Part shown: one piece after another, positions 2,988-13,041 of the stretch
Numbering within the stretch: position 1 is the first letter of the stretch
Layout: every line of letters starts with the position of its first letter
Assembly (NCBI GenBank): GCA_000934665.2
Contig: KZ538417.1
Location: 59,728-79,727, forward strand
DNA length: 20,000 nucleotides
Origin: Catajapyx aquilonaris
Taxonomy: Eukaryota
Direction of reading: 5' to 3'
Position numbers and translations under genes: made by a program
The notes under the pieces: model-generated
Told to the model about the DNA's origin: nothing
What the model saw: only the letters and a program-made list of their open reading frames with translations
Database searches by the model: none

Positions 2988-3800
2988 TATTGAGCCAGCC
3001 CTCATTTCTAATTGCACGAAGAGTGTCAGCATGAGTGGTCAGGATTATCCATGCCGTTGGGCGTAAACAGGGCAGGTGTGTGGAGGATATGGGTATATCC
3101 TGACATTTGGCGCAATTCCCATGCCTTAACTAGACTGCAGAGGGGCTCGAGGATGGGTAAAAATATCTATCTCTCTCACTTTGTCGTTTTGCAACTCATC
3201 TCTGGGGAGTTTCATTTTAATCCGTGTGTCATCCATAATGGAAAGAGTTGGTATCCTGGGCAAGGGGTTCGATCGGAATGGGATGAAGGTCCGGTTTTTT
3301 GGGGGGGAACATGAAAGCACCACATGAGTTGGGATTGGTTGGAGGAGCTAAAAAAAAACGAGTATGTAGAGCGGAGATAGGGGAGTGAGAGTGTGTAGTA
3401 TATGTGTGGCGGGGGTATGTCATGCGTCACGCACCATAGCCGCATGCGAATGGAGCCCCGTGTTACTATTAAAAGAGCCTTCACAAACACGGGTACAAAG
3501 TGTGGCGGACACGACATATGCATTTGGCAACATTAACCCCCACGGTTGCTGTCATGTAAATGTTGAGATGACCGTGCACCGACGAGCCTTGTCCCGGATC
3601 AGAGTGCCCGCTTTGATTATTGTGTGTCTGATTAAATGGGCTAACCGCCGGAACAAGTTGGCCGAGCAAATGTTTTTAGAGTTGTTTTTTTTTTTACTGT
3701 ACGTGGGGGTTGCGGGTACGGAGCAATGTCCGACCTTATTTTTAGGTCGACTTGAAGGATAGAAAATTTCATCAAAATTTGGCAGCTAGTGTAAGATTGT

Positions 3801-3835
3801 TCTTAACTGAATATTTCTTTCTCTTGCAGGTAAGT
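3801..3835 (+). other. Recursive splice site (ratchet point): 3' splice site directly abutting a consensus 5' splice site
   Basis: The sequence is TCTTAACTGAATATTTCTTTCTCTTGCAG|GTAAGT. It has a branch-like CTTAAC (3802-3807), a pyrimidine tract with no intervening AG, CAG at 3827-3829 and a perfect GTAAGT at 3830-3835. Confidence 0.7.
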
Positions 3836-3900
3836 GTTGTCGGCCATAACTTCGTTGCTCAAGGGGTTCTCCATGTGGAATTTTTTTCCAATTTTGTCAG
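3830..3900 (+). other. Cryptic 71-nt recursive-splicing exon ending at a second YAG|GTAAGC junction
   Basis: It begins after the CAG acceptor at 3829 and ends at TTTTTTTCCAATTTTGTCAG|GTAAGC (donor 3901-3906). Its 71 nt are not a multiple of 3, and TAA stops occur in two of three frames. Confidence 0.6.
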
Positions 3901-6900
3901 GTAAGCAATTTTTTGACAGTACTTTTCTCGTACAGTACCAGTATTATTTAACAAAACGAAGCAGCAATTCCTCCAGTTCTCTCGAGTTACAGTCGGTATA
4001 TAGCAAAAGAGAGGTGGTGCTCATCGATTCCTGGGAATGGGAATTGGTGAAATGGTAGCTTCATCATCATCAAGCACCAATTTTCCTCTAGAGGAGCATT
4101 TGGCGAATTGGTTTCTCGATTCTCGCCTTGCACAAGTCAGCCCTGTCTTTCTCTACAAAGAGTACAAAAAAAAAGATCAGGACGAGGTAGAACTGGAGGC
4201 GGGAAAAAAATAAGTGGTAGGGAACTTTTGGGAGCAACATTTTTTTTCTCTCTTACTCTCTTCCTAAGGGCCAGAAAACAAACGGTGGGAAGGAATCGGT
4301 TTTGGTAGCAAATGTATAGCCCCTGCTTGATGAATTCATTGGGGAAATTTGCCACCAGAATGCTCATCAGATACGAGCTAAATGGATTCTCCGCAAACTC
4401 TCATTGAATTGAAGCCACGTCGACCTCAGAGAGCAAGCGAGAAGAGTCTGAAAACTCAAAAATCTGGGTCGGAGAACATGTTGTTGGGCGTGGAATAAAA
4501 AGAATGTGGAAGTGGCTCCCGAAGGCTCGTCTAAACTGTCAGTTGGGCGAGGTTGGAAAAGTGATCAATCATCTTTTCCAAGAGGAAGTGAAATGAATGC
4601 TCCTGACTTTCAGTCTGCTTTTCAACTACACGGCTTTTGCAAATTGCCAGTCGCGCCTCTCACCTTGCTAGTTTTTTTTCTTCAAATTAATTATTATGAG
4701 CAATGTTTTTTTGGGGGTTGTCTTGTCTTGTATTGTCAGAATTGTGCTGCTTTAGTGTCACATGCTTTGCCAACCACCGAGTTGTTGTCGAGTGGTATGA
4801 GAGTTTGCCGCTTCTCAAGTATATGCCTGGAGAGAGGGATTATTCCACTCCTCCAAATAGGGATTAAAAGTTTACTTTTCGACAACCACTCTTTCCTTTT
4901 AATAGGGCTAAAAGTCTAGAGAGCCCGCAACCTACACGAGGAATCAACTATTATTTTGTACCGGTACGTAAAAAATTAATATAGGGCCAAATTTTTGTCC
5001 CACTGTTAAGCAGTACCAATGTTTGGGAGTTGTTACTATACTAAGTTAGCAGTACAGTAGTGGGGCGAACGACGAAAATTCCATCCATAGGCCTACATTT
5101 TTTTATTCGCAATACTCGTTACTATGGGACAAATTGGTCAACCATCTTTTGGGTCTGTCCAATCAGGGATCTTGACGTCCTTAAAGTTGGAAAAACGAAA
5201 CCAAAGTGTATCAGATTCGGCCATTGCCAACCGGATCCTTCCTGAGTCATCATTAGACCACACAATCATTTTCACTTTAGAACTTTACGACAGCATTCTA
5301 AACGCGGATCTTTCGAAGCAGCTAGGAGGCACCAAAAAAAAGTACAGGGAGTATCCCTTTTCGATGAAGAGGTCTCATCTCTTTCCTGGATAAGAAAAGA
5401 GGTGGAAAAAAAGGTTGATTCGGTTGGTGCGAAGAGGTTGACCCGATCGTTCCTGGAGGCTTCCGGAGGGTCCGTTTCCATCACAATCGGCCGCTCAGAG
5501 ACGATTGCAAAGCGATTGGACCAGTCGACTGGAGCCACACTGTAAATAGATGGGAAGGGATGGGGAGTGGGAGACCACAAAAACCAAGCCTTGTTCAGCA
5601 GGCAGGGAGATAGAGCCATGGATCACAGATCAGAATACGACCGGATATATCAAAGAATAAGAAAAGAGAGAGAGGAATTCGTGAGGCTGAATATATTTTT
5701 TGGCTGCACCCCAAAGATCTCAACAATACTGTTAAAGTATGATTGCATTTTGATGTGATGATAATGATGGGGAATTGTTGTTAGTCTCTACTTTATTGCC
5801 AGAACCTGCGCATTGAAAAGTGAAAGCGGTTTGTATCCTTAGCGCTTTAATTACCTTATAAATCAAATTTCATAAGTCTCGCCGGAACCCTTTTTTGCAA
5901 GCGGTTTTTTTTAACTGCTCCCTCCTCCCTCAGGCTCTGAACCCATTAAAGTTCGATGCAGGCATTGACTAAAACCCGTCCTAAAATCTGGTTGGCAGAA
6001 CAGAAAACGTGTCATCGCATTATAATGAAACGGGGCGTAACGGCACACTTGCCAACCTTGTAAGTGGCAGTTGACCGTTTAAGGCGAATAAATATCACGC
6101 TTTTGTTTCCAAAATTTACGGGCCCGTCCCATCATATATATATAGCTCTCCGGTTTTATAAATGCGAGTTTGTAGCCTACCCCTCCCCCCCCCCAAAAAC
6201 CCAGCCATCTTTTAGTGTCCCCCACATTTCATGATCCATTTCTAAGCCTCGGATTCGGAGGCTGTAGAAAAGCAATTACGCGTCCCAGTGATGAAAGGAA
6301 AAGCGTCCACTGTAATCACCTCTACTGCGCCAAATATTGTCACCTCCAATGGCCACCATAACCTGCTGAAATATTTTAAAATAAAAATTATAAATAGAGT
6401 ATATTTTTCTGGTGGTGACGTCATACGTTGCGGACATAATTATTTTTCGGTTGGAAGACCCTGTGTCCCCACACGATGCAAATGGGTGTGACAGATTGGG
6501 TTACGCGGAGGTGAGGCGGATCAAAGTGATGTGCTCAAATTGCATTGGGCGTGATGGATTTTTTTTTTTTAAAGTTATTTATTTTTGCCATCACGCGTTT
6601 AAAAAATATAACTGGCAGGTCGACCGGAAAATGGGAAGTTTTTTAAACCCCCTATCCTGGGATCCTGCGTGTATGATGGAGAGGATCATACGCAAAAACG
6701 TGTGTGCCAATCAACAAAATGGAGCGCAAATTTTTTTTTTCGCTGAGGCATATTCGCACGTTCAAATTCGATGTGATCGAGTCAGTGGACGGTTGAAGCT
6801 CGCAAATTTTATTACGGTTCAGGTCAACTAACCTTGTCAAAAATTTGCACACCCTCCGAGGTGCATGTTCGCGTTCTTCGTTAAAATTAAAATCCACTAC

Positions 6901-7183
6901 CATCAGACACTGAATTAAGTACCAGCAGTATTGTATTTTTAAAAGATCCCTGCACTTGCTCAATCAATGCCTATACATATAAGGTGCCACACAAAAATTC
7001 GTAAAGATTCCATGGCTTCAGCAAGCTTCCAAATTATACGACACCGGGCGTGTGGAACCTTTCAACCCACGGCTGATCGATAGTGTGCCGAACTTGCCGG
7101 TACCGCCTCCATATTCATGACAGCCTGAAAATAAAAAGTGAAAAACGGCCCCGGTTTTTTGAGGGGTGGGTGGGTGAGTAGGT

Positions 7184-7206
7184 GAGAGAGAGAGAGAGAG
7201 AGAGAG
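7184..7206 (+). repeat. (GA)11 microsatellite
   Basis: Uninterrupted GA dinucleotide run read directly from the sequence. Confidence 0.95.
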
Positions 7207-9670
7207 GCTGTGGGGGGGACATGGGAACCAGTGGACCGAGAGGTCGAGCCCATGCACGCGGATACGTTTTCCACTCGTAAATCTCTCAAAAACTGCGAGG
7301 ATTCCCATCCCACTGATACAGAACTGAGCCATAAACCCTAGTTTTTTTTTGCGAAGATAGAAACTGGCCGGTGCAAAAAAAATTGTAGCAGGGTGTGTGA
7401 ATTGGGTGTTAATTTGAACGCTTGTTAAAAATCCAGGGACTTGGTTGTGAGTCAATTGGTGCGGCATCGATTCTTCTTGTCCTGTACCCCAGCAGATAAT
7501 CGTGGAGACTCTGCTTCATGTCCAGGCCTCATTCGGTGTCGGATCGTTTCGAGTTGGGGGCGTCCGAGTGCGTGCTTGCCGCTGATTGACGCTGCTCGAG
7601 CGCGACAAATTGTCGGGTCAAGTGTCGCCACAGGCGTTTGATGGGCTGGAGGACACCTGAAGAGCATGTGTCGGATGTCTTTTTTTTCGGTTTGTAAACA
7701 AACCGCTCATATTTTTTTTATACGTTGCCAAAATGTCACTCGCTCGTTAGCAACTTATTAGCAAGAGTTTGAGGAATTTCGGATGCGGATCTTTCCCTCG
7801 GGTACGGGCTCTTCGCCCAGATTATCATCATTTATGCTCCAGACTCCTGCAATTTAGGCGCAGAATCTCCGCCAATGTGATAGATGCTCTTTCGATCCCA
7901 GAGTTCTGCATTATTATATTATCAGGTACGGAATAAGATTCATTACCTGTCACGCTCATGAACCTTGCGGATTTTTGTCTGATTATTTAAATCATGAAGA
8001 CGTATAGAGTATATAGAGGGACCAACATGTGAACAAAATTATTTGTGTCAAAATGTCATAGGTTAAGGTATTATTTTATCAAAATGTGATAGCTTGATGG
8101 TACTTTTTTTCCAATATAATTTTTATTCTCTCAAATTAGACGTAACCGCTCCAATCGTCTCTGTCGTCCTTCGTTAGCCTTCGAGAATAAAATCGGATGA
8201 ATCGGATGTGTCAATCGAACAAAAGGATGGGAAACGCGCTTTCGAGGTCTAATGATCAAATTAAAAGGTGGGTTGGATCCAGTTCAGACGGAAATTCGGT
8301 TCAATTAGCAAGTCAGTCCTATATGCACGAAAAAAGTCTGAAAATCATTGCAAGTTTAGCTCTAATAAAACCGCATTAGAGTGACACATTTTTGGGATAA
8401 AAATTTACACTCTGTTCTCCACCCACTTATTGCAAACTATACGAGAGCTTATTTCACTTAGGGCTATGCGGTTTTTGCACCGATTTTTTTTTACAAACTT
8501 CCAGTACTTTTTTTGTTAGTTGCGTTGCTGGGAAGCTCTCGTGATGCAGTATAATTCGATGATGTAGGCCTAACAGGAAAAAAGGGTACATCCCATAATT
8601 GTGGGTCCCCCCTGGGCTGTCGACCACCGTTAAAACAGTTGGCAATTATGGTTTATGGTTGCGGAATTTCTCTCGCCAGGGAACAACACTGCTATTCAAC
8701 TAATAATACTAAAGGCTGCCAGTAGTTGTTTTTTGTTGGTATAGCCTCGGGCCTATTTGCATTAAATTATTCACGAGAGTGACCTGACAAAAAATGTGGG
8801 GGCCTTAATGGCACTCGGATGTTTCTTTTATAATAAATGCCTTCGGGAGGGACGTTTATTGTGCGGGGAAAAAATAATGGGTGGTCTTTCTATTGAATTG
8901 TTGTACACTCTATTTGAAAGTGCATCCGATTATTTTTACTTTTTTAAAAAATTTGCTACCGACCAACAAGGCTGCATTTCAAAGGTTATGTGGATTCAAA
9001 TTTGTGTGGACAGGGTCCGGCCTGTAGGTGTTAAAACTCGGGTTCGTAATGGACCAGTAAACGTCAGTGCAGTGAAAATTTTAGGCAACTTCTGCGAGAG
9101 CCATTGGATGCAACGCGGGACATTTACAGGCCAATCCTGACGTTCGGCGTGTGATGACCATCATATCAAAGGCTAATAGCATAACCGACAGGGAACTGGC
9201 GACGTGTATGTTGCATTTATTTTTATTGCCACGTGCTCTCCCAAAAATTATGCCCCCACATTTTGTCGAGTGTATGATGCAAAAAGCACAGTTAATGAAG
9301 ATGGCCTCTAGCAGCTGGGCGAAATAATTCGTCTTTTGTGGAGTAAATGCATTGCTTCATGAACATATGTACTATGTAACTCTGAGAAGTTTAGAATATT
9401 TAAGCACGGGCTGCAAATGTCCAGACTTCTGTTTGCTTTTGTACAGTATAACAAGCCTGCAGTTTCCATGTAGTTAAACGGTATTTTTATATTCAAAGTC
9501 TTGTGTACATAGCTTGCGGGGCGAAGTACAGTATCACAGCAGCTGGTGGTTTACCTTGGGAAAATTTGGAAACGGTCGCGGTCCTTAGATGCGTTAGACG
9601 GCCCCAAAAAATTGGCATAACGTGCTGGCCACAGGGGCAGATAAATATTCATAGTCGTCAATGTCACTAA

Positions 9671-9766
9671 GGCCTGTTTACGCCCTTACGATTTAAGCCT
9701 CGGTCGCACGATCAGACTCTTTGCGACCGACCGTCTGGTCGTGCGACCGATGCTCAAATCGTGAGG
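9671..9766. mobile_element. Palindromic MITE-like fragment (possible PIF/Harbinger-type end)
   Basis: 34-bp inverted arms at 9684-9717 and 9733-9766 (30/34 complementary) surround a 15-nt loop that holds another TGCGACCGA copy. Upstream TAA|GGCCTGTTTAC resembles a TWA target site plus a G-rich TIR. No matching right TIR was found nearby. Confidence 0.5.
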
Positions 9767-11013
9767 TTTTACATGTTGGTTTTTCGACATTTTGTGCCTC
9801 TACATTTTAGACTCGTTTCGGTCATATTTATCAAATGATCCTGCTCCCCCGAGTTTCTTACTTGCAAGAAAGCTCCCTCAGCTGACAAAGGCCCCGTTTT
9901 TGGTGGGTCCAGCAGGCACAGCTTCCGTCCCGACTAATTCACCATCACCCTGTAAAAGCCGCAAGGGTAAGTGCAGCATGGGGTTGAGTAACGAGCTGGG
10001 TCCGCAGTCCCTGCCGCGAGTCCAACCGAATGAAAAGCGACAAGTGCTTGAGCAGGTGAGAAAGTGTGTGGTGGCTGCTCAAGATATAAAGACAAGCGTA
10101 GGAGGCGCCTTAGAGAAACCCGGGGTAGGGGGGGGGGGCAGCCTTTTAGAAAGTGTTAGCTTTTGGCTTGAGGAGCAATCTGCAAGGCCAATCCGTCCTG
10201 CGGCCATGTTTCTGCTAAGTGAGGGCCAGATGTTGCCACCAACTTACAGGGACTCCTTTCTCTGGGAGTCGAGCAAGGGGCTTGGAAACCCCCCACAGAC
10301 ACATCCGGATAGACTTGTAACCTAAACTCTCTCTCTCCAAAGCGCGTCATTTGCACTGTCAGAAAGTTTTCCCTCGACAGCAACAGTTTGGCAAATATCC
10401 TCAGCTGTCGTGTGAAAGGGAAAGGGGGCAGTAATCAGCATTGTGCCAGTTGACATTTTGTGTAAATCCATTTTTTTTGGGAGGGGTGTCTGATGTCTGC
10501 CAGTGCGAATTTAAGCGTTTTTTTAAAAAGGGGGTCGGGCTGTAAGTGTTGACAAGCGCAGATTCATCTGTCTGCTGTGTGTGTATTGAAACAGGTTGCT
10601 TTGTTGAATATTTTAAAGCGGACAGTCGTTGGGCTTTTGTTGCAGCAGGCCATTTGTTATAATTTGCCTGGGCCGGATAGGGGAAGGTTGGTGATGATTA
10701 ATTTTTATTTTTTCAAAAAAAGTAGCCGCTCTGGGATAATTAAAGCTCGAGACCGTCCACACTGTGAGTTTAGTCTCATACAATGTCAGTGTGCAATGTG
10801 GATATTTTTGACGGTTTAAATAGTAAGTCATTGGCAGTAAATATTTTGCCAAAAGGCATTTTCAATCTACACTTGCACATCAATATATTCGAAATAGCAG
10901 TAATCGTTTGTTGGTTTTATATAACGATGGAGTGGGTAGATGAAGGAGGGTGGAAGGGTCGAGATGTGTACTCATCGACCTCCAGCAAACGACTGAGGAG
11001 TTCCTCCACCCAT

Positions 11014-13007: not shown

Positions 13008-13041
13008 GGGGGGAGGGGGGGGGGGGGGGNNNGGGGGGGGG
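13008..13041. repeat. Poly-G tract containing a 3-nt assembly ambiguity (NNN 13030-13032)
   Basis: Read directly. The true length is uncertain because of the Ns. Confidence 0.9.

Follow-up and report, generated by a model that had tools for sequence, protein, structure and literature searches.

A candidate insect-type intronic ratchet point with a 71-nt cryptic exon, and an acceptor-like tract before the exon's donor, in a 20-kb stretch of contig KZ538417.1

The intronic ratchet points of Drosophila, as described for kuz, Bx, Ubx-RP and chinmo (Joseph et al. 2018, 2021), consist of a juxtaposed acceptor and donor of the type (Y)nNCAG/GTAAGT (the slash marks the junction), a short out-of-frame cryptic exon and a canonical donor downstream of it (PMC8605326). 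Such cryptic recursive splicing exons (RS-exons) are short and variable in length, about 50 nucleotides (nt), with 53 nt in Ubx-RP and 56 nt in chinmo; those published are out of frame and carry stop codons. The donor of the ratchet point usually outcompetes the donor of the RS-exon, the exon being recognised first and then discarded (PMC8605326). Here we describe a similar arrangement in a stretch of 20,000 nt of contig KZ538417.1 (positions 59,728 to 79,727, forward strand), called the window in the following; all coordinates are those of the window. Two AG/GT junctions are situated there 71 nt apart on the + strand. The first, at 3829/3830, is probably an intronic ratchet point of the Drosophila type within a long intron of the + strand, with 3830–3900 as its cryptic RS-exon and the GTAAGC at 3901 as the donor of that exon. 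As judged from the sequence, the element would most likely belong to a class that has already been described, namely insect-type intronic ratchet points with a cryptic RS-exon.

The likeness to the Drosophila ratchet points comprises the juxtaposed sites, the short out-of-frame exon, the canonical donor behind it, the stronger donor at the ratchet point (in the genomic context) and the long non-coding setting (PMC8605326). The present exon is different in that it has 71 nt, as compared to the examples of 53 and 56 nt, and in that an acceptor-like tract precedes its donor, a feature which is not discussed in the available passages of PMC8605326. Expressed RS-exons (m1 and m2 of Ubx, 51 nt each, and those of sm, msi and heph) likewise regenerate a donor at the start of the exon, and a choice between two donors sets the outcome; however, they are frame-preserving, ultraconserved and seen in mRNA, whereas the present exon is frame-shifting and known from the sequence alone (PMC8605326). 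In the rat tropomyosin pseudo-exon (Grellscheid and Smith 2006, cited via PMC2773006) one intronic element can similarly lead to inclusion of an exon subject to nonsense-mediated decay or to splicing of a "zero-length exon", although that element is from a vertebrate and has a single AG/GT (PMC2773006). Dual-specific splice sites, such as the tandem array of human UBC (Duan et al. 2024, PMC10809524), have AG/GT cores capable of both roles and provide a precedent for a tandem; there, however, the array delimits coding repeats of variable number, whereas the 71 nt here are non-coding and a dual role would be putative. With vertebrate RS-exons (Sibley 2015, Blazquez 2018; cited via PMC8605326 and PMC6224609) the present element would have in common exon definition, competition of donors and inclusion of a poison exon. 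In contrast, the CpG ratio of the window (0.79) argues against a vertebrate, and the T-rich NCAG/GTAAGT core is of the insect type.

Junction 1 reads tttctttctcttgcag/gtaagt, with CAG ending at 3829 and GTAAGT starting at 3830 (AG at 3828–3829, GT at 3830–3831), in the context ttcttaactgaatatttctttctcttgcag/gtaagtgttg. Junction 2 reads tttttttccaattttgtcag/gtaagc at 3900/3901, with TTTTTTTCCAATTTTGTCAG ending at 3900 and GTAAGC starting at 3901 (AG at 3899–3900, GT at 3901–3902), in the context ggaatttttttccaattttgtcag/gtaagcaatt. The following features were distinguished:

3803–3807, + strand: candidate branch point TTAAC, with the branch A at 3806, 23 nt 5' of the AG at 3828–3829.
3807–3829, + strand: polypyrimidine tract and CAG acceptor of junction 1, recognised by pyrimidine counts, the AG-free zone and the match of a 16-nt core.
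3830–3835, + strand: putative ratchet-point donor GTAAGT, the sole donor with nine of nine consensus positions, which would be regenerated by splicing of an upstream exon to 3830.
3830–3900, + strand: probable cryptic RS-exon of 71 nt, frame-shifting, with TAA in two frames and of the published order of length.
3881–3900, + strand: T-rich tract (T7, CC, AA, T4, G, T) and CAG before junction 2, acceptor-like in appearance and with a putative role.
3901–3906, + strand: probable RS-exon donor CAG/GTAAGC, the sole donor with eight of nine positions and presumed partner of the ratchet point in exon definition.

The anatomy of the two junctions is non-random. The strict ratchet-point pattern YYYYYYNCAGGTRAGT matched once in the window (3820–3835, + strand) and in none of 200 dinucleotide shuffles. 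When the 2058 GT sites on both strands were ranked by their agreement with CAG/GTAAGT, the site at 3830 was the only one with 9/9 and that at 3901 the only one with 8/9 positions, the next ones having 7/9. Only three GT sites are found 40–80 nt 3' of 3830, and thus the chance that the runner-up donor is among them amounts to about 0.001–0.002 by our own arithmetic. In Markov simulations of the window, ratchet-like sites were defined as AG/GTRAG with at least 13 pyrimidines in 20 nt and at least 30 nt free of AG. Two such sites were observed per 20 kb versus 0.13–0.20 expected, and a pair not more than 100 nt apart occurred in 0 of 1000 simulations at Markov order 1 and in 0 of 1000 at order 3.

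In long introns of insects, ratchet-point sites (RP-sites) are found on the sense strand at densities per 100 kb of 2.2 (fruit fly), 1.0 (mosquito), 0.8 (beetle) and 0.5 (bee), with a sense-strand enrichment of 4–22 times in fly, mosquito, bee and beetle; antisense strands and intergenic DNA have a background of about 0.1 per 100 kb (PMC2773006). This low background is one argument against the view that the motifs are non-functional, i.e., that they lie in untranscribed or antisense DNA or are never used and reflect a coincidence in T-rich sequence. Other arguments against it are the very low chance expectations from shuffles, donor ranking and simulations, and the occurrence of four independent features in register (branch point at -23, pyrimidine tract, perfect donor, strong donor at +71). 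On the other side, the site was picked post hoc from a scan of many windows, and no related DNA was matched in the metagenome and genome contigs searched. Taken together, absence of function appears unlikely.

The strength of donors and acceptors was judged by consensus match, U1 duplex energy and pyrimidine counts. At junction 1, TTAAC (A at 3806) is the sole YTRAY within 70 nt 5' of 3829, and no AG is located between it and 3828. The tract contains 15 pyrimidines in 20 nt, among them an unbroken run of 12 nt, and is free of AG over 34 nt; the joint acceptor rank is 1.7% among the AG sites of the window, or 1.2% with T counted. The duplex of the 3830 donor with U1 (-14.0 kcal/mol) is the best in the window. 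For comparison with known sites, the table of Pai et al. was used, which lists 539 recursive sites of D. melanogaster. The 16-nt core TCTCTTGCAGGTAAGT of junction 1 is identical in two of the 539, both of high confidence. A 20-mer across junction 1, on the other hand, had no match among the 539 sites, in the nine supplementary files of PMC6110457 or in the full texts searched. Identity with a listed site was rejected, since the 20-mer is absent from these supplements, and absence from the list means that the sequence stems from another locus or another species. The same 20-mer was also without a match in metagenome contigs and genome contigs. A further observation concerns 3811–3835, where a 19-nt run, CTTTCTCTTGCAGGTAAGT, is common to junction 1 and a high-confidence D. 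melanogaster site (S1 Table of Pai et al., row 80; FBgn0035533, 3L:4338182-4363026:-). This could be an orthologous site, or merely a case of two near-consensus pyrimidine tracts.

The interval 3830–3900 has 71 nt, which is not a multiple of 3. Its first frame is open and reads VSVVGHNFVAQGVLHVEFFSNFV (23 residues), the second opens with TAA, and the third contains TAA at 3847–3849; translations thus confirmed the first-pass annotation, which had described a frame-shifting exon with TAA in two frames and an open third one. The donor window of RS-exons is said to be 40–80 nt, a figure attributed to Joseph in 2018. An open reading frame (ORF) at 3834–4055, which overlaps the interval in a frame different from the open one, had no protein relative in the searches made. 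The RNA fold of 3790–3940 gave z = -0.42, and 69 of 200 shuffles were equally stable; a structural switch was therefore dropped as an explanation, the fold not being above shuffles. The structure of minimum energy places the second donor in a small hairpin at 3895–3918 (GUCA with UGAC), to which no weight was given, as the stretch as a whole does not fold significantly.

The 71 nt might instead be retained in a share of the transcripts, as an alternative untranslated-region exon or a poison exon, with a regulated choice between 3830 and 3901, comparable to m1 and m2 of Ubx. The donors are near in strength (9/9 and 8/9), the one at 3901 has an exonic CAG of its own, and one frame is open throughout. 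Furthermore, reporters have shown that donor strength is not the sole determinant of inclusion, which can be driven by exonic elements (PMC8605326). Against this, the length is not divisible by three, two frames contain TAA, and the overlapping ORF 3834–4055 lacks a protein relative and is not in the open frame; in Drosophila, moreover, the known expressed RS-exons number fewer than 50, as compared to more than 500 intronic ratchet points (PMC8605326). An expressed or regulated exon is, in our estimation, distinctly unlikely.

For a ratchet point, the features found at junction 1 are the juxtaposed (Y)nNCAG/GTAAGT, a canonical donor downstream (+71) and a cryptic exon which is out of frame and bears stop codons. 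In the genomic context, competition of the donors should be in favour of 3830 (9/9, -14.0 kcal/mol) over 3901 (8/9, -11.0 kcal/mol, 71 nt further 3'); after the first step, the exonic positions would be supplied by the upstream exon, which is located outside of the view. It is the stronger donor at the ratchet point, together with the frame-shifting exon of 71 nt, which points to 3829/3830 as ratchet point, 3830–3900 as cryptic RS-exon and 3901 as the donor for exon definition. The first-pass annotation had proposed recognition of a cryptic exon by exon definition combined with a tandem of ratchet points. The former agrees with the model in the available passages of PMC8605326 and with the finding that the two best donors are 71 nt apart; the tandem is unsupported, as detailed below.

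The following sequence of events could be envisaged. At junction 1, U2AF and U2 would assemble on branch point (A at 3806), pyrimidine tract and AG, and jointly with U1 at 3901 they would define the exon of 71 nt. The upstream exon would then be joined to 3830, with GTAAGT now directly behind it, so that a donor is regenerated. Being the stronger one, the regenerated donor would prevail over 3901 and be spliced to the next acceptor; the 71 nt would be discarded along with the remaining intron, and the mature mRNA would keep nothing of the site. Use of the donor at 3901 instead would lead to inclusion of a frame-shifting segment carrying stop codons. We infer that the + strand is transcribed, that the sites are used and that the events follow this order.

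Several points weigh against this interpretation. By crude measures, junction 2 resembles an acceptor about as much as junction 1 does (joint ranks of 2.6% and 1.7%). An upstream exon with a poor end (last three nt) could allow 3901, which has its own CAG, to win, so that the exon is retained. Genuine ratchet points are marked by a deeply conserved AG/GT core; conservation of the present one would be putative, a pattern of both junction cores with a gap of 50–70 nt having had no match in metagenome and genome contigs. Finally, the assignment to the + strand is tentative: over most of the window, this strand has more G than C and more T than A, and such an excess of G and T hints only weakly at its being transcribed as the sense strand.

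Junction 2 combines a strong donor with a middling acceptor. The first-pass annotation had noticed a second junction with GTAAGC 71 nt on, with a T-rich tract of its own and about 35 nt free of AG. This was found to be correct, the AG-free length being 37 nt (preceding AG at 3862–3863); 14 of 20 nt are pyrimidines, 12 of them T, and the site ranks in the top 2.6% of the 2268 AG sites of the window, or 0.6% with T counted. Since the CAG before GT belongs to the donor consensus, only the T-rich, AG-free tract is an extra at this junction; a rank of 2.6% is suggestive, but with hundreds of ratchet points per genome (more than 500 in the fly) some such cases are to be expected by chance. Most likely, the acceptor-like look of junction 2 represents the exonic half of a donor consensus (CAG) within a T-rich stretch. 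Occasional use as an acceptor may occur nevertheless, though not as a second obligatory ratchet.

A true tandem ratchet would mean that both AG/GT junctions are zero-length recursive sites and that the upstream exon can be joined to either 3830 or 3901. In a variant, the exon would first be joined to 3830, and the 71 nt would then be removed as a mini-intron (donor 3830, acceptor 3900), with regeneration of GTAAGC. Since the clean mRNA would be the same by either path, the two junctions could serve together as a fail-safe or a switch. The composition and rank of the tract (T7 and T4, 14/20 pyrimidines, 37 nt without AG) speak for a tandem, as does the lack of a comparable pair in the simulations at either Markov order. 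The core GTCAG/GTAAGC of junction 2 is present also in one high-confidence D. melanogaster site (row 253), and GTAAGC is common at ratchet points, with CAGGTAAGC in 36 and CAGGTAAGT in 27 of the 539 listed fly sites. For human AGGT donors, additional use as an acceptor has been reported at 3.1 times the expectation, with about 12% of the donors showing it at more than 10 reads (PMC10809524).

The details of junction 2 argue in the opposite direction. It has G at -5, where junction 1 has T; GNCAGGT is rare, being present in 12 of the 539 sites (one of these a centred high-confidence site), versus 139 with TGCAGGT and 72 with TTCAGGT, or 211 together. No YTRAY was found 15–45 nt 5' of its AG; the only TRAY is CATAAC, with the A at 3849, 51 nt 5', and an AAG (3861–3863) intervenes between it and the AG of the junction. 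A branch point for the mini-intron would be needed at about 3868–3885, and none of the consensus type is present there. No more than 19 nt separate the A of CATAAC from the donor at 3830, a distance too short for a mini-intron of 71 nt in view of the known minimum distances. Taken as an independent ratchet point, junction 2 lacks the downstream donor: no donor with at least 6/9 positions occurs within 235 nt 3' of it, the nearest with 5/9 being at +95. The claim of the first-pass annotation that the 3901 donor is a second ratchet point with three regulated outcomes is thus unsupported, on account of the G at -5, the missing YTRAY and the missing donor.

In addition, U1 bound at 3901 would sterically block the AG at 3899–3900; a steric clash at recursive sites in general was raised by Pai et al. 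(PMC6110457). Recursive segments of D. melanogaster average 9.1 kb, and nearly all of them are longer than 1 kb (PMC6110457). The site was also singled out after the fact. A duplication as the origin of the two junctions was rejected, since 779 of 2000 shuffles of their contexts aligned equally well, and this speaks against a tandem, too. On the whole, a true tandem ratchet, with or without the mini-intron, appears unlikely, and so does real use of junction 2 as an acceptor. The fly site in FBgn0013759, which has 13 nt identical with junction 2, was considered as a precedent for a tandem and rejected, because the other listed site of that intron is 2030 nt away.

A related idea is that the donor of the RS-exon would be a working dual-specific site and make the ratchet point self-correcting. 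An upstream exon spliced onto 3900/3901 would still regenerate a donor, and 71 nt included wrongly, being flanked by GTAAGT and a pyrimidine tract with CAG, could be cut out again. We regard this as quite improbable. An RS-exon donor doubling as ratchet point was not described in the texts searched, although the supplements of the key papers of 2005, 2015 and 2018 may well contain such cases. If true, self-correction would give the ratchet point an inherent protection from the risk of poison exons, which was raised by Joseph et al. for cryptic RS-exons (PMC8605326). Conservation and use of the tract before the second donor would illustrate a way in which a ratchet point can be guarded against accidental inclusion of its own frame-shifting exon. 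Returning to the single ratchet point at 3829/3830 with its cryptic exon, its use would add a further well-formed example of recursive splicing, probably outside of the listed D. melanogaster set, and the two nearly equal donors would be a natural test case for donor competition.

The surroundings were analysed as well. The GC content of the window is about 44% and the observed/expected ratio of CpG is 0.79, which indicates that the DNA is not from a vertebrate genome. The stop-to-stop ORFs look like noise, and no convincing coding sequence was found in the 20 kb. There are 83 ORFs of at least 70 amino acids; 81 of them were scanned with Pfam, two spanning a run of N being left out, and none of the 81 gave a match above threshold. 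The sole match, Rota_NS6, had 17.5 bits versus a cut-off of 28.5 and was taken as a chance result below threshold. Rfam families in the window amounted to 0. From the lack of a coding ORF and the CpG ratio, the window would appear to lie within a long invertebrate intron, most likely an insect one.

Some other places in the window were also recorded. At 9940–10060 (+ strand) two donors, AGG/GTAAGT at 9967 and CAG/GTGAGA at 10056, both with 7/9 positions, are located where the GC content of the window is highest (about 0.51 over 9501–10500); perhaps the same + strand gene has an alternative exon here, first or internal, or perhaps the matches mean nothing. A perfect inverted repeat of 12 nt, tcggtcgcacga and tcgtgcgaccga with a spacer of 28 nt, was read by eye at 9700–9751, where the DNA is locally GC-rich. 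At 13015–13041, a poly-G of 15 is followed by NNN and a poly-G of 9, which has the appearance of a homopolymer interrupted by an assembly gap. Finally, G-rich GGGTG repeats at 7160–7215 run into (GA)n of about 12 units; they are the source of several spurious donor matches and could be a GAGA-type element.

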